This document shows, in pieces, positions 5,850 through 47,315 of a stretch of 50,803 nucleotides of DNA. Location of the stretch: contig NZ_JAPNKD010000018.1 in the NCBI RefSeq assembly GCF_026626585.1, positions 267,718-318,520 of the forward strand, in the 5' to 3' direction. Positions within the stretch are counted from its first letter, which is position 1. Every line of letters starts with the position of its first letter. Source of the stretch: Nannocystis sp. ILAH1 (GTDB lineage: Bacteria; Myxococcota_A; Polyangia; Nannocystales; Nannocystaceae). The notes beneath the pieces were generated by a model. It worked only from the letters and a program-made list of their open reading frames with translations, made no database searches and was not told the DNA's origin. Made by a program: the position numbers and the translations under genes.

Positions 5850-7166
5850 GTGCGAGCGCTGCGCTCGGGCCTCGCGCGAGACGAGCGTCGGCGGTCCGGG
5901 TATGCTCGCCGGGTGACGAGCGTCTCGCGGCCGGTGCCGGCGGCGGCTCCGTGGGCGGAGTCGATGTTCTCGTTCGGGGTCACCGGCACCAACGGCAAGA
6001 CTTCGACGACGTGGATGCTGGCGGCGGCGGTGCGGGCGGCCGGGATGTCGGTGCTGCGGGTGTCGACGCTCGGGGTCGCGTTCGACGACGAGGCGTGGCC
6101 GCGCGGCAAGCGGTTCACCGACTTCGTGGCCACGCTCGCGCGGGCGCACGAGCGCGGGGCCAGGCACGCGGTGATCGAGACGACCAGCCACGCGCTGGCG
6201 CAGGGCTATGCGCGCAGCTGGCGGTTCGACCTCGGGGTGTTTACCAACTTGTCGGTCGATCACTTCGGCACGCACGGCAGCTGGGAGCACTACCTGGCGG
6301 CCAAGGCCCAGCTGTTCATGCACCTGGGACCCGGGCGCGTGGCGGTGCTCAACGCGGCCGACAAGCACGCGCTGTTCGTCGACCAGGCGATCCCCGCCGA
6401 CGTGGAGCGGCGGTGGTTCGCGGCGCCAGGTCGCGGGCCGCGGCTGCGCGCGGCGGACCTCGAGGCCGAGGCGATCGAGGTCGAGGCGACCGGGACGCGG
6501 GTGGTGCTGCGCCCGTCGCCGGCCGCGACTGCGCTCGGCGGGGCGCTCTTTACGAGGATGGTGGGCGAGGTGTTCGCCGAGAACGCGCTGACGGCCGCGC
6601 TCGCGGGGCTCGCGGCCGGGCTGCCGGGCGAGGCGGTGGCGCGCGGGATCGCCGAGTGCCCGATCGTGCCGGGGCGCTTCGAAGTGCTGGCCCACGGGCC
6701 TGGCCGGCCGACGATCGCGGTCGACTATGCGCACTCGCCCGACGCGCTGACGCATACGTGCGCGACGGCGCGGCGGCTGGCGGGGCCGCAGGGGCGAGTG
6801 TTGGTGGTGTTCGGCGCAGGTGGCAACTCGACGCCAGAGAAGCGCGCGCCGATGGGCGCGGCAGTCGGCGCGCTGGCCGACGTGGCGTCGGTGACGAGCG
6901 ACAACCCGCGCGACGAGGCGCCGGAGGCGATCGCGGCCGCAGTGGTGGAAGGGCTGCAGGGCGGTCGCGCGGGGTGGTCGATCGTTCTCGACCGCGGGCG
7001 GGCGATCGCCGAGGCGGTCGCGGCGGCCGGGGCTGGCGACGTGGTGGTGATCGCCGGCAAGGGCCACGAGGAGGGGCAGACGGCGCGCGGGCAGACGCGG
7101 CCGTTCTCCGACGTCGCTGAGGTGCGGCGGCTCGTCGAAGGTTGGCATGTGCCTGAAGGGACATGA
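5850..7166 (+). CDS. Mur ligase family protein, MurE-like central and C-terminal domains only (no UDP-MurNAc-binding N-terminal domain)
   Basis: ORF 5850..7166. It has the Mur ligase P-loop GVTGTNGKTSTT, a VDYAHSPDAL motif and a DNPRDE motif of the MurE/DAP-adding type. The start is uncertain: ATG 5850 or ATG 5964 (MFSFGVTGTNGKT). Either way there are at most about 40 residues before the P-loop, so the protein lacks Mur domain 1. Confidence 0.75.
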   Translation: MRALRSGLARDERRRSGYARRVTSVSRPVPAAAPWAESMFSFGVTGTNGKTSTTWMLAAAVRAAGMSVLRVSTLGVAFDDEAWPRGKRFTDFVATLARAHERGARHAVIETTSHALAQGYARSWRFDLGVFTNLSVDHFGTHGSWEHYLAAKAQLFMHLGPGRVAVLNAADKHALFVDQAIPADVERRWFAAPGRGPRLRAADLEAEAIEVEATGTRVVLRPSPAATALGGALFTRMVGEVFAENALTAALAGLAAGLPGEAVARGIAECPIVPGRFEVLAHGPGRPTIAVDYAHSPDALTHTCATARRLAGPQGRVLVVFGAGGNSTPEKRAPMGAAVGALADVASVTSDNPRDEAPEAIAAAVVEGLQGGRAGWSIVLDRGRAIAEAVAAAGAGDVVVIAGKGHEEGQTARGQTRPFSDVAEVRRLVEGWHVPEGT

Positions 7167-7240
7167 CCGAGAGGTCATGTGGATTTTCAGGTCGCCGGGG
7201 GCGGCCGCGCGGGTGACATGCCCTTTCGGGCATGTCCATA
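7143..7240 (+). repeat. array 2 of the GGRCATGYY repeat family (5 units)
   Basis: CATG cores at 7146, 7164, 7176, 7217 and 7231 (ggcatgtgcc, gggacatgacc, ggtcatgtgg, gtgacatgccc, gggcatgtcca). It lies in the convergent intergenic region 7167..7248. Confidence 0.6.
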
Positions 7241-7248
7241 CAATCATC

Positions 7249-7854
7249 TCAGCAGTCGGCCTCGTCGGCGCCGTCGGGGCAGTCGTCGGCCATGTCGCAC
7301 TTCCAGGTCGCCGGGATCTCGGTGCCGTTGGTGCAGAGGAAGGCCTCGAGGCCGCAGCCGGTGACCTCGTCGGAGTTGTCGAGGCAGTCGGGGACCTCGT
7401 CGCAGGCCCAGGTCGCGGGGATCTCCTTCTTGTCGGTGCAGGTGAAGGCCTCGAGGCCGCAGCCGCTGACCTCGTCGGAGCCGTCAGGACAGTCGGGGTT
7501 CTCGTCGCAGACCCACGCCGGGTTCTCGAGTGCGGTACCGTCGCTGCAGACGAAGCCCTCGCCGGTGGTGCCCGCGGTGGCCTCGGTGGTGCCCGCGGTG
7601 GCCTCGGTGGTGCTGGTCGGGGTTTCGGTGGTCGTCGGCGCGCTGGTGCCGGTGTCGGTGCCGTCGGTCGTCTCGCCCGCCGTGCCGGTGCTGGTCGTGT
7701 CGTCCGTGGTGCCGGCGGTGCTCTCGGTCGTGGTCGTCTCGGGGCCGATGTTGGTATCGGAGAGACCGCCGAGGTTGATCGTGCAGCCGGCTGTGGCGAC
7801 GCCCTGGCTCATGAGGGCGGCGACGGACAAAAATTTGGCGAGGTCGATGTTCAT
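7249..7854 (-). CDS. lipoprotein with three LDL-receptor class A (LDLa) cysteine-rich repeats
   Basis: Lower part of minus ORF 7249..7995. ATG at 7854 (MNIDLAKFLSVAALMSQGVATAGC) gives a lipoprotein-type signal. A Thr-rich linker follows, then three repeats of CxDGxxxxxxWxCDxxxDCxDxSDExxC (FVCSDG..WVCDENPDCPDGSDEVSGC, FTCTDK..WACDEVPDCLDNSDEVTGC, FLCTNG..WKCDMADDCPDGADEADC). Confidence 0.8.
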   Translation of the reverse strand: MNIDLAKFLSVAALMSQGVATAGCTINLGGLSDTNIGPETTTTESTAGTTDDTTSTGTAGETTDGTDTGTSAPTTTETPTSTTEATAGTTEATAGTTGEGFVCSDGTALENPAWVCDENPDCPDGSDEVSGCGLEAFTCTDKKEIPATWACDEVPDCLDNSDEVTGCGLEAFLCTNGTEIPATWKCDMADDCPDGADEADC

Positions 7855-7922
7855 CGTGCCGGCGAATGTGCCACGGGCCGGCGCGCAGGGGCGCGCGCGG
7901 CCCATGTGCCGGCGCGCGCGAT

Positions 7923-8423
7923 TCAGGTCGGCGCGAGGCGGACGGTGACCTCTGCGCTCGGATCGAAGGGCGAGCCCTTGACGTCGGCGATGCATTTGAC
8001 GACGAGCCGCACCCGCGGATCACGCGTGGCGGCGTTCGGATCGGGGAAGCCGTTGCGCGCGAGGATGCCGGCGAGGTCGACCTCGCTCACCAGCCACGGC
8101 TGGGTGATGACCTGCCCGGGCTTGAGGTCGCAGGGCATCTTGAGGCAGCTGTCCGAGTAGCTGACGTTCGGATCGGGATCCTTCTCGGCGCGGGCGAGGT
8201 TCGGCGAGTCGATGTCGTCCTTCTTGATGTACAGCCACACCTCGTACTTGGTCGCCAGCAAGGTGCACTCCTGCTGCGCGGTGATCACCATCGTGCCCTT
8301 GAGGACCGAGTCGGTGACCGGGAAGGTGGCGGTCTCCGCCGGTTGACGCTCGATGACGGTGATGGCGACGCTCGCCATGTTCTTGCCGCCGAGGAACTGC
8401 TTGGCCTTGTCGAAGAATCCCAT
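7923..8423 (-). CDS. hypothetical protein, possibly SpoOM-like
   Basis: Lower part of minus ORF 7923..8645. The start is taken as ATG 8423 (MGFFDKAKQFLGGKNMASVAITVIERQ...). The N-terminus resembles the SpoOM family as far as I can recall. The upstream part of the track ORF is Arg-rich frame noise. Confidence 0.6.
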   Translation of the reverse strand: MGFFDKAKQFLGGKNMASVAITVIERQPAETATFPVTDSVLKGTMVITAQQECTLLATKYEVWLYIKKDDIDSPNLARAEKDPDPNVSYSDSCLKMPCDLKPGQVITQPWLVSEVDLAGILARNGFPDPNAATRDPRVRLVVKCIADVKGSPFDPSAEVTVRLAPT

Positions 8424-39365: not shown

Positions 39366-40028
39366 TCAGGGCGGCGGCGGCAGGTCGTCTGCGGCCTCCT
39401 GGCGCAGCTTGGACCATATGCGCAGGAGCTCCGCGCTGCGCGGGTCGAGGCTGCCGCGGGCGCGTACCGCCGCCTCGACCACGACGATCCGCGCCACCAG
39501 GGCCGGCTGCACGTCGGCGGTCGGGAGGTCGCGCAGCGTGTTGGTCGCCGCCTCGATGAAGTCGATCGGCGCGACCTCCTGCATGAATGTGAGCACCGGC
39601 TCGACCGACTCCGCCTTCGGCACCGCGCTGATCATCTCGAGGAACGTGATCACCTTCCATTGCGGCCACAGGTCGCCGAACTTGAGGATCACCTCCCAGC
39701 ACAGCGGCAAGATCGCCGGCCCGTAGTCGTTGCGGGCCTTCATCCCGTACCGGGTCCAGATCCGCGAGATGCCGGTGACCTTCCTGCCCTCGGCGGCGAC
39801 GTTGACCTGATCGAGCTCCGCGAGCACCTGACGATACAGCGCCGCGTGCTCGCTCCAGCCGCGGACGATCGCCGCCAGCGTCCGCCACAGCCAGTCGGGG
39901 TCGCCGGCGTACGCCGGCAGGTAGGTCATCACCGCCGTCGGGTCGGCGAGCACCCGGTCACGCTGGTGCGTGTAGTCCTCGCCGTGAAGCCTCCGCAGCG
40001 CCGCGAACTCTGGCCATTTCTGCGTCAT
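39366..40028 (-). CDS. hypothetical protein (220 aa), between the deiminase and the sirtuin
   Basis: Lower part of ORF 39366..40202. ATG 40028 (MTQKWPEFAALRRLHGEDYTHQ...) overlaps the upstream gene's stop by 4 nt. Confidence 0.65.
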   Translation of the reverse strand: MTQKWPEFAALRRLHGEDYTHQRDRVLADPTAVMTYLPAYAGDPDWLWRTLAAIVRGWSEHAALYRQVLAELDQVNVAAEGRKVTGISRIWTRYGMKARNDYGPAILPLCWEVILKFGDLWPQWKVITFLEMISAVPKAESVEPVLTFMQEVAPIDFIEAATNTLRDLPTADVQPALVARIVVVEAAVRARGSLDPRSAELLRIWSKLRQEAADDLPPPP

Positions 40029-41269
40029 ACCTGCTGCTCCCACCACCAGCGATCGACCGGCGGCTCCCGCTTGCTGTTCGTCCCGCAGTGGATCTCGCCG
40101 TAATTGACGTGATACGTGAAGAAATCGTCGACGAACTCGAGGTCGACGCCGGTGTCGGCCGGCGGCCCGAGCGCGGTGCGGATGTTGCTCTCGAACTGGC
40201 ACACCCCGCCGACCTCCGGCCCGAACGGCTTGGGGATCACCAGCCGCACCGTCTTGTCGGGTTTCGTCAATACCAGCATGTTGACCACCCCTGGCGTGTA
40301 CGCGACGTGAAGATTATTTTCGGTCGTCATGAACAGCACCGGCAACGGGATGAAGTCGGTCTCCGCGAGGTCGAGCTCGTCCATGAGCTTGGCCTTGATG
40401 CCATCGATGGAGCCCTGCACCGTCGTCTGCACGTTCATGAAAGACGAGTCGTCGAGCACCTCGTCGACCGTGCGCAGGTGGTAGCTGTCGTATTGGTCCT
40501 GCGGCGTCATGACATCCGGCGGATGATCGGGCAGCGGCGGCGGCGGCGTGAGCCGCAGCAGCGGCGCGGTGCCCTGCCGCGCCGCTTTGAGTCGGCGCAG
40601 GATCGACACCGCTTCCGTCGGGCTGGCGAGCGCGACCTTGAACTTCTTGGGCGCGTTCTTCACCGGCACGAACGACATCACCTCGTCGACGTGACCGACC
40701 TCCAGCCACCCGGTGTTGAGCGCGAACGGCTCCTGGACCCGCTGCGCGCGCAGGAAATCGACGACATCGCGCTGCATGTTGCGCCGGGCGGTGCCGCCGG
40801 GGTGCTCGCCGTAGATCAGGCGGCCGAACTTGTACTCCTTGCCGCGACCGCTGTGGGTGAACGGCGGCGAGCACTCGAGGTTGCCGAACGAGTCGAGGGT
40901 GCCGCCGCTCTTGCTCGGCGGCATCGCCTGGACCCACCCGAAGCCGGGCTCGAGCATCCGTTCGCGCGGGTAGCGGTCGATGGGCCCCCAGCCCAGGATT
41001 GGACGCGAGTCGTTGGCCGTCGCTTGCGCGCCAAACGCTCCAGCGGCCCCGACGCGCAGCGCCGGTGGTGCCGGCGAGGGCGAGGACGCAGTCGTGGGCA
41101 AGCGGGGCCCGCTGGCCTCCTCGAGTGCGGCAAAGTAGGCGCCGGTGCCCCAGCGTGGGAACGTCGGGGCCCGACGCTCGACCGAGCCAAACGCCCCTTG
41201 CCTGCCGGGCTTCTTGAGACGGCCGTGTTTGACGGGATGGCCGATGTAAAGCGCAGCTTGCGCGTTCAT
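40025..41269 (-). CDS. eukaryote-type protein-arginine deiminase (PAD/PADI catalytic domain) homologue
   Basis: Lower part of ORF 40025..41494. ATG 41269 ([18 protein letters not shown]...). The C-terminus [34 protein letters not shown] closely matches the PADI catalytic-Cys region (FFTYH...GEVHCGTN...WW). Also [15 protein letters not shown]. About 414 aa, with no N-terminal Ig-like domains. Confidence 0.75.
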   Translation of the reverse strand: [414 protein letters not shown]

Positions 41270-41604
41270 GCTGATTTCCGTCTGGAGATCCCGGCCGTCC
41301 GCCACCTCTGAGATGGCGACAAGGGCCTTCTTGGCAGCGGCGGTGCCTGAGAGGACAGTCTGCGTGGTGGTGGTGCGGCCACCGCCCTGGCGGCGGGCGG
41401 ACCAGGCGGTGACGCCAAGTGATCTCGCCGGCTCTCTCAAAGCGGCGCTGAGGGACGGCGCCAGAGTAACGGCGGCAGGCCGATGGATATGCAACTACCA
41501 CCACAGAACGACGGTCCGTCTGCTCGCCGCGGAAGGTCCTTTTCTGCCTCGACAAAATCCCGTCTTCGACCGAGAATATCCGTGGCACGACCGACTCTTG
41601 CGTT

Positions 41605-44736: not shown

Positions 44737-45441
44737 TCAGGTCTGGGAGGCGACCTCCTTGCGGCGTGATGGGCCTTTTAGCATGAGGCGGTGGCACTGG
44801 GAGAGCATGCGATCGCAAATCGCATCAGCGGTTGTGGGGTCGCCGATCTGGTCGTGCCAGAGCTCGGGCGAGCGCTGGCTGGTCAGGATGGTGGAGCGTT
44901 CACCGAATCGATCCTCCATCAGTTCGGACATGTCTCTTCGCTCGGCCGGTCCGAGCGGGGTCATGGCCCAGTCGTCGAGGATCAGGACGTCGACGCGGGC
45001 GAGCTTGGCGAGCAATCTTGCATAGGTCCCGTCGGCGCGGGCGAGCGCGAGCTCGTCGAAGAGCCGCGAGGTGCGGCGGTACATGGCGCGGTAGCGGCGG
45101 CGGAGGGCGTGCTGGGCGAGGGCGCAGGCGAGGAAGGACTTCCCGGTGCCCGTCGGGCCGGTGATGGCGATGTTCTGGTGCTAGGCGACCCAGTTGCAGG
45201 TCGCGAGCTGGCGGATCAGCGGCTTGTCGAGCTCGCGGCGGTCGTCGTAGTCGAGGTCCTCGAGGCAGGCGCTGCCGAGCTTGAGGCGCGCCTCCTTGAG
45301 GTTGCGCTTGAGGCGGGCGTTCTGCCGGCTCATCCACTCGGAGTCGACGAGGAGGCCGAGGCGCTCGTCGAAGCCGAGGCCACCGTAGTCGGGCCGCGAC
45401 TGCTGCTCGAGCCAGGCTGCGGCGAGACCGTTCAGCCGCAT
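44737..45441 (-). pseudogene. istB: IS21 helper ATPase IstB with an in-frame amber stop (TAG at 45181-45183) just before the Walker A motif
   Basis: Track ORFs 45181..45441 and 44737..45084 are in the same frame. The sequence between them reads HQNIAITGPTGTGKSFLACA (Walker A) straight after the TAG. The C-terminus is VDVLILDDWAMTPL...ERSTILTSQRSPELW. Confidence 0.8.
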
Positions 45442-45492
45442 TCTTTGAGCTTGTCCATGGTCTGCTGATTCATCATCGATGTGTCTTTTCGG

Positions 45493-47040
45493 TCAGTTGT
45501 AGTAGCGAGGGCCGCGGATGTTCTCGTGGGCCTCGGGCTTGTCGGCCGGTATGTCGGCGGGGATATCGGGCAGCGGGGCGCGGTCGAGGCCGTTCTTGAG
45601 GATCGATTCGACGTGGCGGTACGAGCGAGCGCGCACGGCCACGGCACGGGCGCAGGCGGCCTCGAGGCGCGCGTCGCCGTAGGTCTTGCCCAGGCGCAGG
45701 ATGCCGAGGCAGGCGCGGTAGCCGTGCTCGGGGTGCTTGCGGTCCTTCATGATGGCCTGGGCGAGCTCGGCGGTCTTCGGGCCGACCTGCTTCGCCTGGG
45801 CGAGGATCCGGCTCGGCGAGCGATCGGCGTGCCGCTGGTGGGCCTTCGGCATGTGCTCGGGCTTGGTGGTATGGCGACCCGCGGCGAAGCTGCGCGCGTG
45901 CGAGGTGATGCGCTTGCCGCCGTGCAGGAGCCCGACGGTCGTCGCGGTGAAGCGCGCCTCGACGGCCTCGCCGACGAGGGTGTACGGCACCGAGTAGTAG
46001 TGGCGATCGATCTCGACGTGGTAGTCGATGTTGACGCGGCACGTCTTCCACTCGCAGTACTCAAATCGCTCGACGGGGAGCGGTCGCAGTTCCGATCGCT
46101 CGATGCGCTCGAAGAGGGCGCGACGGCTGATGTTGCCGTACTTCTTCATCGGCCGGGTGTTGAGGTCCTCGAGCAGCTCGGCGACCCGCGCATTGAGCTC
46201 CGCGAGCGAGTGGAAGACCTCGTCGCGCAGGCGCGCGACGATCCACCGCTGGGCGATCAGCATGGCGTTCTCGACCTTGGCCTTGTCGCGCGGCTTGCCG
46301 GGCCTGGCCGGCATGACGGTGGTGCCGTAGTGCTCCGCGAGCGCGGCGTAGGTTCGCTGGATCTTCGGGTCGTACCAGCACGACTTCGTCACCGCGGCCT
46401 TGAGCTGGTCGGGCACCAGCGCCGCCGGCACGCCGCCGAAGTACTCGAGCATGCGCGCGTTGCTGGCGATGAAGTCGTGGCCCCGCTGCGTCAGGCTCGC
46501 CTCGGCGTAGGTGAGGTTCGAGGCCCCGAGCACGCCGACGAAGAGCTCGACCGCGATGCACTCGCCGGTCTTCGGATCGACGATGTGCAGCCTGTTACCC
46601 GAGTAGTCGACGAAGGCCTTGTCACCGGCCACGTGGTCGATCCGCATCGTCCAGCCGCGCTGCTTCAGCCAGGTTCGGTACAGCTCGCAGAATTGCGTGT
46701 AGCGATACCCGTCCCGGTTCTTCTCGAGGTACTCGACGTGCAGCAGCGCGAGCGTGACGCCCTTCCGCCGCCGCTGCGCGTGGATATGCGTGAAATCAGG
46801 CAGCGGCCTCGCCCGCGACGCCGGCTCGCCGTCGTAGACGACCCGCTCCAGTGCCTCGTCGCTGAGGGCCTGCACGGCCTCCCAGGTGAGGCCGGCCTCA
46901 CTCGCCTTGCCCACGACCTTGCCGACGACGCCGGCGCTGACGTCGAGGCTCGCAGCCACGTCCCGGTGGCTTCGCTGCAGCGCCCACTTCTGGCGCAGGA
47001 TCTCGCGGATGTTCTTCATGGTCAGTCGCTGCGTCGCCAT
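45493..47040 (-). CDS. istA: IS21-family transposase IstA
   Basis: Frame of ORF 45493..47178. ATG 47040 (MATQRLTMKNIREILRQKWALQRSHRDVAASLDVSAGVVGK), with a GGGAGG RBS 5 nt upstream. It has an HTH domain plus an integrase core (DYSGNRLHIVD...). Confidence 0.9.
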   Translation of the reverse strand: MATQRLTMKNIREILRQKWALQRSHRDVAASLDVSAGVVGKVVGKASEAGLTWEAVQALSDEALERVVYDGEPASRARPLPDFTHIHAQRRRKGVTLALLHVEYLEKNRDGYRYTQFCELYRTWLKQRGWTMRIDHVAGDKAFVDYSGNRLHIVDPKTGECIAVELFVGVLGASNLTYAEASLTQRGHDFIASNARMLEYFGGVPAALVPDQLKAAVTKSCWYDPKIQRTYAALAEHYGTTVMPARPGKPRDKAKVENAMLIAQRWIVARLRDEVFHSLAELNARVAELLEDLNTRPMKKYGNISRRALFERIERSELRPLPVERFEYCEWKTCRVNIDYHVEIDRHYYSVPYTLVGEAVEARFTATTVGLLHGGKRITSHARSFAAGRHTTKPEHMPKAHQRHADRSPSRILAQAKQVGPKTAELAQAIMKDRKHPEHGYRACLGILRLGKTYGDARLEAACARAVAVRARSYRHVESILKNGLDRAPLPDIPADIPADKPEAHENIRGPRYYN

Positions 47041-47172
47041 TTCGCCTCCCACGCGAAATGGCCGGTGATTCAGCGTCGACCTCGCCCCCTCGCGCATTCG
47101 GCTGCGCGTAACACGCGGAGGCGGCTCCGTTCCTTGGAGTCTCGGCCGCCGGCCGGCGCACTCGCCGCCGGT

Positions 47173-47315
47173 GATCACGAGGACCGATCTGGGCGATCAC
47201 GATGCCGATCGGCGCGATCACGATGCCGATCGGCGCGATCACGACGCCGACCGGCGTGATCACGATGCCGATCTACGCGATCACGAGGGACCGATCTGGG
47301 CGATCACGATGGGCC
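47173..47315. repeat. array of about 6 x 21-bp GATC-rich repeats (GATCACGATGCCGATCGGCGC) in the IS21 left terminal region
   Basis: Copies at roughly 47173, 47195, 47216, 47237, 47258, 47279 and 47304. The first and last copies are the variant GATCACGAGGRACCGATCTGGGC. Each unit carries two GATC sites. Inverted copies of the unit lie at 44632-44665 at the other end. Confidence 0.8.

Follow-up and report, generated by a model that had tools for sequence, protein, structure and literature searches.

The gene located on the minus strand at positions 7249..7854 of the window, by which the whole analysed stretch of 50,803 nucleotides from Nannocystis sp. ILAH1 is meant, encodes a predicted lipoprotein that ends in three consecutive modules of the LDL receptor class A type (LDLa, or LA repeats). 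These modules are homologous to the repeats of the animal receptors, and they represent a variant in which each module retains four cysteines and follows its neighbor without a linker. The preliminary description of this DNA had presented the protein as a bacterial lipoprotein built from three LDLa modules with the complete six-cysteine spacing, a domain said to be unusual in bacteria. The homology is sustained by the analysis, whereas the cysteine spacing is not, and the module is not rare in this lineage.

The coding sequence comprises 201 codons and a stop codon at 7249-7251, as given by the list of open reading frames and its translation. The gene is real, and its product is 100% identical to the NCBI "hypothetical protein" OV203_41055 of Nannocystis sp. 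ILAH1. The ATG at 7854 is the conserved start, because the orthologues begin with M[KNQH]IDL and the sequence upstream of this point is unrelated. The in-frame upstream extension to 7995, which is Arg-rich and lacks conservation in other genera, was rejected as the coding start. The GC content of the gene is 0.698 and its GC3 is 0.95, compared with a GC content of 0.713 for the window and GC3 values of 0.92-0.97 for the neighboring genes. The region 7000-8100 gave no match in Rfam, and the scan for sigma-70 promoters and intrinsic terminators found none. Full-length orthologues are present in six Nannocystis species, three strains of Enhygromyxa salina, and several metagenome-assembled genomes of Nannocystaceae or Myxococcales. 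The copy of N. pusilla Na p29 (L001, 6001-6600) carries a frameshift near its 5′ end, and another relative (P0003) carries one after module 1.

The identity of the domain is best described by the profile searches. The Pfam family PF00057 (Ldl_recept_a) matches the whole protein in three stretches with 85.1 bits (E 3.7e-24), so that the LDLa assignment, which the preliminary description had proposed to abandon if such a search returned no LDLa match, is upheld. Each of the modules also passes the gathering cut-off of 24.1 bits when submitted alone: module 1 (residues 100-132, 7459..7557, minus strand) reaches 32.5 bits, module 2 (residues 133-167, 7354..7458, minus strand) 38.8-39.5 bits, and module 3 (residues 168-201, 7252..7353, minus strand) 39.8 bits. 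The NCBIfam scan assigned no family and returned only two noise matches (E 4.1 and 8.5). Among the PDB sequences, phmmer retrieves the repeats of LRP2/megalin, LDLR, VLDLR, ApoER2, CD320, and complement factor I, of which those of LRP2, LDLR, and VLDLR are the best solved relatives, and the identity to individual animal LA repeats is 36-47%. An example of this relationship is the alignment of module 3 with LDLR repeat 5, which extends over 35 residues, 14 of them identical, without a single gap and pairs W184 with W193, D187 with D196, A189 with G198, D191 with D200, and D197-E198 with D206-E207. The acidic residues of the calcium cage and the Trp, both part of the earlier reading, are thus found in register; the Ca2+ ligands of LDLR repeat 5 are here taken to be those of PDB 1AJJ.

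The predicted structure leads to the same assignment. For residues 96-201, AlphaFold used 68 four-cysteine relatives and gave a model with a mean pLDDT of 87.7, in which a pattern of hairpin and short helix is repeated three times. This agrees with the LA fold, whose module begins with a hairpin and ends in a Ca2+ loop that includes one turn of helix. In the Foldseek comparison with the PDB, LA arrays (megalin, LDLR, VLDLR) occupy the top with a probability of 1.0 and a best E of 7.5e-9, and almost all of the best 50 matches are LA-repeat proteins; the TM-scores are low, as expected given the variable orientation of modules in multi-module chains. The predicted fold therefore matches LDLa arrays, and the conclusion that the modules are true LDLa homologues is sound. 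Modules 2 and 3 form, within 7260-7515, a tandem repeat of 105 nt with 80% matches. The orthologues have two, three, or four modules, and the copy number therefore appears to shift by unequal recombination.

Short acidic Cys-rich motifs can converge, and the modules might accordingly be an independent Cys/Asp-rich calcium-binding repeat, such as the thrombospondin type 3 or a myxobacterial cysteine-rich repeat, or the true gene might be the antisense ORF at 7232-7948 on the plus strand, which is longer and also high in GC3. Such a reading is essentially excluded and is the least probable of all considered here. PF00057 is the sole match, with no other repeat family found in Pfam or NCBIfam, the register with LDLR repeat 5 is gapless over its 35 residues, and the top of the fold search consists of LA arrays only. 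The plus-strand ORF has no Pfam match and was rejected as a shadow, the high GC3 of which results from the third-codon positions that it has in common with the real gene. The Pfam scan of the ORFs overlapping the gene on both strands likewise gave no match, and in the orthologue alignment the cross-genus conservation falls in the LDLa frame.

The canonical LA module consists of about 40 residues, in which six cysteines pair into three disulfides and conserved acidic residues coordinate Ca2+ octahedrally (PMC10074552). The protein encoded in the window departs from this description in its cysteines: residues 100-201 include 12 of them in 102 positions, four per module, spaced C-x12/11/11-C-x5-C-x9/9/8-C with six residues between the modules. 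This spacing is that of the canonical C2...C4-x5-C5-x8/9-C6. None of the three modules has C1 or C3, and the same holds for every orthologue, so that the full set of three disulfides (C1-C3, C2-C5, C4-C6) cannot be drawn. The C3 position is occupied by Glu or Leu, and the HMMER alignment to LRP2 places Glu144 and Glu179 there. The same program aligns the lone Cys of "GCG" to LRP2 either as the last cysteine (C6) of a module or as the first (C1) of the module that follows; the assignment of C2, C4, C5, and C6 to each module is preferred because module 1 has no cysteine at C1 and module 3 ends in a cysteine. As read from the residues, the consistent assignment would be that the C1-C3 pair is missing and the linkers are of zero length. 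In these terms module 1 contains C103, W114, C116, D117, D121, C122, D124, S126-D127-E128, and C132; module 2 contains C139, E144 (C3 position), W149, C151, D152, D156, C157, D159, S161-D162-E163, and C167; and module 3 contains C174, E179 (C3 position), W184, C186, D187, D191, C192, D194, A196-D197-E198, and C201 at the C-terminus. The pattern literally written in the preliminary description, right in spirit, matches nowhere in the protein, owing to the spacing and the lack of C3, and can be replaced with [FW]-x-C-x(9,10)-W-x-C-D-x3-D-C-x-D-x-[SA]-D-E-x(2,3)-C. For the same reasons the PROSITE-style LDLRA signature, in the form that we take it to have, fails unrelaxed; once the requirement for its first Cys is dropped, it fits modules 2 and 3.

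The calcium cage is retained throughout. The Asp after C4, the Asp before C5, the Asp-Glu pair of the SDE motif, and the preceding aromatic residue are present in all three modules (W114/D117/D121/D127/E128; W149/D152/D156/D162/E163; W184/D187/D191/D197/E198), and the acidic residues of the cage are invariant in the orthologues. Across 17 orthologues the invariant columns are the cysteines, D117, D121, D124, and S126-D127-E128, together with the equivalents in module 2, and the position of the Trp may be occupied by W, F, Y, L, or S. The residue at C4+3, the middle of the canonical Asp triad, is N, V, or A in the three modules, and the pocket for basic residues is therefore incomplete when judged by that triad (PMC11297306). 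The dN/dS of the modules within Nannocystis, about 0.6, is unreliable and uninformative because GC3 is near saturation.

The lipoprotein signal and the Thr-rich stalk, which had been recognized in the preliminary description, are both present. The signal peptide with its lipobox covers residues 1-24 (7783..7854, minus strand), and the N-terminus MNIDLAKFLSVAALMSQGVATAG-C24 agrees with the regular expression that we take to be the PROSITE PS51257 lipobox rule, applied here to the protein and its orthologues. The expression matches LMSQGVATAGC with Cys24 (7783-7785), the predicted lipidated residue, and Lys7; Cys24 falls in the range of 15-35 that the rule allows for the lipobox Cys. The rule is passed by 14 of the 17 orthologues and failed in its strict form by three; Cys24 is invariant across all 17, the cysteine total equals 4n+1 in every orthologue with Cys24 as the odd one, and the signal is conserved in the family as MKIDLKKFLAxxAxMSQG...GC. 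In the full-length AlphaFold model, a helix is located at residues 5-16. The acidic, Thr/Gly-rich, low-complexity stalk follows at residues 25-99 (7558..7782, minus strand), with Thr at 31 of 75 positions, a net charge of -12, and zero Lys or Arg. Residues 16-99 of the same model have a pLDDT of 31-38 and the stalk is without secondary structure, which supports its predicted disorder. Among the orthologues the length and acidity of the stalk are conserved and its composition is variable, Thr-rich in Nannocystis and poly-Gly-Asp in Enhygromyxa. The stalk also contains a perfect repeat of 21 nt in 2.4 copies (7563-7613), by which TEATAGT is encoded twice. The family is restricted to Nannocystaceae and is defined by a lipobox signal, an acidic disordered stalk, and two to four abutting modules.

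The function that can be proposed for such a protein is based on the animal LA repeats. In these, the Ca2+ site and a neighboring aromatic residue lie on one face of the module, and a Lys of the ligand packs on the aromatic ring and is ringed by the Ca-coordinating acidic residues (PMC11297306; PMC10074552). The binding is EDTA-sensitive, and avidity across repeats adds strength (PMC11297306; PMC10074552). In VLDLR, the side chain at C4+3 touches a second basic residue. In the Nannocystis protein, every module has the Trp as well as an Asp at both C4+1 and C4+5. We regard it as moderately probable that the protein is a membrane-tethered, Ca2+-dependent binder of basic ligands, either a protein or a polycation, and not an enzyme. 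After export, Cys24 would be lipidated and the protein anchored in a membrane, probably the outer one, because no retention-type residue follows the Cys. The acidic stalk of about 75 residues, predicted to be disordered, would carry the three abutting modules at its end. Each module would form a β-hairpin with the putative disulfides C2-C5 and C4-C6, the C1-C3 pair being lost, and would offer its Trp and an acidic cage for one Ca2+. By analogy with the animal repeats, the Ca2+-loaded acidic face and the Trp would dock Lys or Arg side chains of the partner, and the three consecutive modules would provide avidity. The protein would thereby act as a tethered module that depends on Ca2+ to capture, or adhere to, a basic ligand. 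The genomic context yields no partner, since the sole conserved neighbor is a cytoplasmic ligase. Nannocystaceae produce sterols, and for this reason, as well as for the "LDL receptor" name of the domain, a link of the protein to sterols was considered; it was rejected as unsupported, because LA modules bind basic protein residues and not lipids.

The charge of the protein suggests a different role, in which it acts as a cation sink that buffers or stores Ca2+ at the envelope, or sequesters polycationic antibiotics or peptides, and in which it has no specific partner protein. The protein is very acidic, with a net charge of -35, the mature protein ranging from -27 to -61 across the orthologues, and it combines three predicted Ca2+ cages with an acidic stalk, which in Enhygromyxa consists of poly-Gly-Asp. 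In the modules, surface residues change rapidly, fixation is limited to the cage and the cysteines, and the Lys-docking triad is incomplete. Animal megalin binds polybasic drugs through its LA repeats. Three Ca2+ sites per molecule, however, provide little buffering capacity, the Trp at the ligand-contact position is retained in all three modules, and the conserved module number (2-4) and abutting geometry suggest a defined binding surface. We therefore consider the sink unlikely, while leaving it some weight, and retain the tethered binder of basic ligands as the preferred reading.

The genomic neighborhood leads to a further alternative. The convergent neighbor of the LDLa gene (5850..7166, plus strand, with the probable start near 5964) encodes a short ligase of the MurE subfamily. 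It consists of about 400 aa with Mur_ligase_M and Mur_ligase_C only, lacks the N-terminal (UDP-MurNAc-binding) domain, and its match to TIGR01085 begins at profile position 88 of 472. The short architecture is common to all of the at least 120 ligase relatives among the matches listed; the family occurs in Nannocystaceae and Myxococcales, and its copies in cultured strains are named "Mur ligase family protein" by PGAP. This ligase is the sole neighbor kept beside the LDLa gene across genera (Nannocystis, Enhygromyxa, other Nannocystaceae), convergent in most genomes and tandem upstream in Enhygromyxa. On the metagenome contig L081, a YcaO gene, an amidohydrolase gene, and a small ORF precede the ligase. 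In a metagenome protein from JGI (P0012), a Mur-ligase N-terminus is fused in frame to the LDLa modules, a chimera arising from either a deletion or an assembly artefact.

The persistence of this neighbor in both convergent and tandem orientations is an argument for a peptidoglycan tether. Here, the Ca2+/acidic pocket would bind the amino groups of the stem peptide (diaminopimelate or lysine), the stalk anchored in the outer membrane would reach the cell wall, and the short MurE-like ligase would be coupled to it by adding or altering that residue. The extended stalk of 75 residues could span the periplasm, and the primary amines of Lys are recognized by LA modules (PMC11297306). The genes are nevertheless convergent in most genomes and so without co-transcription, their adjacency may be mere inherited synteny within one family, and the Mur-ligase gene was not found when sought beside a differently built four-cysteine LDLa lipoprotein. 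We also know of no LA module that binds peptidoglycan, and consider the tether quite improbable.

Other neighbors are kept within Nannocystis only: a 166-aa protein, an aldo/keto reductase, a TetR regulator, TrpC, and TrpF. The gene of the 166-aa protein lies directly upstream on the same strand (7923-8420, minus strand); its product begins with MGFFDKAKQFLGG, is conserved within the genus at 92-99% identity, and has no relative in Pfam, NCBIfam, or the PDB. Between the convergent ends of the LDLa and ligase genes, two inverted repeats form GACATGNCC-N4-GGNCATGTC hairpin palindromes (7160-7181 and 7215-7236). With up to three mismatches, the palindrome GACATGCCC-N4-GGGCATGTC occurs 13 times in the window against 0.06 expected, at the 22-nt sites 5726, 7160, 7215, 10720, 15757, 19707, 19749, 22759, 22787, 22801, 26787, 36876, and 36904, and those sites whose position was checked lie outside coding sequence. 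Similar palindromes among the fetched loci are nearly confined to Nannocystis (L001-L005), with one other at L026, and in other Nannocystis species the palindrome also closely follows the 3′ end of the orthologous LDLa gene. It has the appearance of a REP-like or hairpin element specific to the genus, which may act as a terminator or as a REP-like element. Elsewhere in the window, the 489-aa ORF at 40028-41494 (minus strand) matches the protein-arginine deiminase (PAD) family PF03068 with 265.9 bits, so that two domains more familiar from animals occur within this 50 kb. An IS21-type element is located at 44740-47196 (minus strand), with an IstA-like transposase (rve and Mu-transposase C-terminal domain) followed by an IstB-like ATPase; the ORF of the latter is probably disrupted, because its match to the IstB profile is limited to the last two thirds.

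The distribution of the domain among prokaryotes was approached by a scan of one genome per species, seeded with only two peptide patterns, which yielded 137 confirmed relatives (80 retained), mostly from Myxococcota and in addition from Poseidoniales archaea. Even from this one limited scan, the statement that LDLa modules are unusual in bacteria appears overstated for this lineage. A word-index search with the family profile adds 69 proteins composed of four-cysteine modules only, the named ones among them all from Myxococcota and two called "LDL receptor domain-containing protein" by NCBI; the animal matches in this search have six cysteines. Canonical six-cysteine arrays occur in Myxococcota lipoproteins as well (L022, L034, L036, L056), and a Bradymonadales protein (L028) mixes six- and four-cysteine modules. 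The exhaustive HMMER search (E<=1e-3) returned 6198 cluster representatives, mostly giant six-cysteine proteins. Among the matches listed, the protein encoded in the window was the only one to match the full-length profile, and the full-length family is small. A literature search for LDLa modules of bacteria or archaea found no relevant paper; what is already known is the Pfam annotation of the protein, precomputed in public data.

Sorting 404 prokaryotic modules by the presence of their cysteines reveals a graded series. In the bacterial modules, C3, and with it the C1-C3 pair, is absent in 205, whereas 130 have C3. In the archaeal modules, 59 of 65 have only C2 and C5, the C4-C6 pair being lost too, and the Poseidoniales sequences have Asn at the C4 position. 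The cysteines therefore vanish in canonical disulfide pairs, which is indirect support for a conserved connectivity. In the non-anchor columns, the prokaryotic modules are slightly, and weakly, closer to one another than to the animal modules. Poseidoniales (Marine Group II) loci, including L052, L064, L065, and L072, encode surface proteins of 900-1600 aa with arrays of two-cysteine LDLa-like modules of the motif F-x-C...W-V-N-D-G-x-x-D-C-x-D-G-S-D-E and a C-terminal hydrophobic anchor.

These data bear on the origin of the modules. LDLa is overwhelmingly an animal domain. Among the 150 matches listed from the exhaustive search, 119 of the 143 new ones that were classified are long six-cysteine proteins, and two cysteines are missing from each module of the Nannocystis protein. 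This might indicate that the gene was recently acquired from an animal and has become a decaying or functionless relic in which the lost cysteines reflect degeneration. The same four-cysteine pattern is, however, preserved with invariant cage residues in orthologues from three or more genera, with identities as low as 40%, the GC content and GC3 fit the host genome, the cysteines are lost as an intact pair and not randomly, and the prokaryotic modules are slightly closer to one another than to the animal ones. A recent relic is thus highly improbable and essentially excluded. A broader proposal, speculative and rather doubtful, is that the LDLa-type modules are, far from being a stray domain of animals, an old and diversified module of prokaryotic envelopes (6-, 4-, and 2-cysteine forms in Myxococcota and Marine Group II), with which the animal repeat shares ancestry or from whose pool it was acquired.

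Members of the LDL receptor family bind ligands and viruses through their LA repeats, which are regarded as an animal invention. If the proposal is true, the Nannocystaceae protein represents a minimal bacterial "receptor", consisting of a lipid anchor, a stalk, and three modules, and the simplest natural LA array in which to study its Ca2+-dependent capture of a ligand. A natural and conserved module without the first disulfide or linkers bears on minimal LA scaffolds and on folding requirements, and the graded reduced-cysteine series in prokaryotes could shed light on how the domain arose. In the biology of myxobacteria, the protein points to an unstudied class of putative Ca2+-dependent envelope binding proteins, although the practical impact is moderate.

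Among the known systems, the closest include the LA repeats of animal LDLR, VLDLR, ApoER2, LRP1, and LRP2/megalin. The similarities include a module of about 35-40 residues with a hairpin followed by a Ca2+ loop, the signature W-x-C-D-x3-D-C-x-D-x-S-D-E, the canonical spacing of C2, C4, C5, and C6, and the tandem arrangement. Unlike the animal repeats, the modules described here lack C1 and C3, and thereby the first disulfide, and abut without a linker at a period of 35 residues, so that the preceding C6 occupies the place of C1. They also have "CDE" in place of "CDG", lack the middle acid of the Lys pocket, and belong to a bacterial host, in which a lipid anchor and a disordered stalk stand in contrast to a receptor with EGF and β-propeller domains. 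Bacterial lipoproteins with a disordered tether combine a lipobox, a long low-complexity spacer, and a small folded C-terminal binding unit; the likeness to them is a general analogy of architecture only, with no sequence relationship. The Poseidoniales modules share with the glucosidase II beta/PRKCSH-type module (PF12999) and with the present protein the core F-x-C-x-D-G-x-x-I-P...D-C-x-D-G-S-D-E, and they still pass PF00057 (33.6 bits) while also matching the PRKCSH-like family; they differ in the Asn for C4, the absent C6 that leaves only C2-C5, and the large size and C-terminal membrane anchor of their proteins. The other LDLa lipoproteins of Myxococcota and Bradymonadales come from the same lineage and have lipobox N-termini and four-cysteine arrays as well (P0033, P0058, P0102, L018). 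Most of these other proteins possess an additional Cys-rich domain at the N-terminus, together with 4-10 modules, in comparison with which the Nannocystis protein is the minimal form of signal, stalk, and modules.
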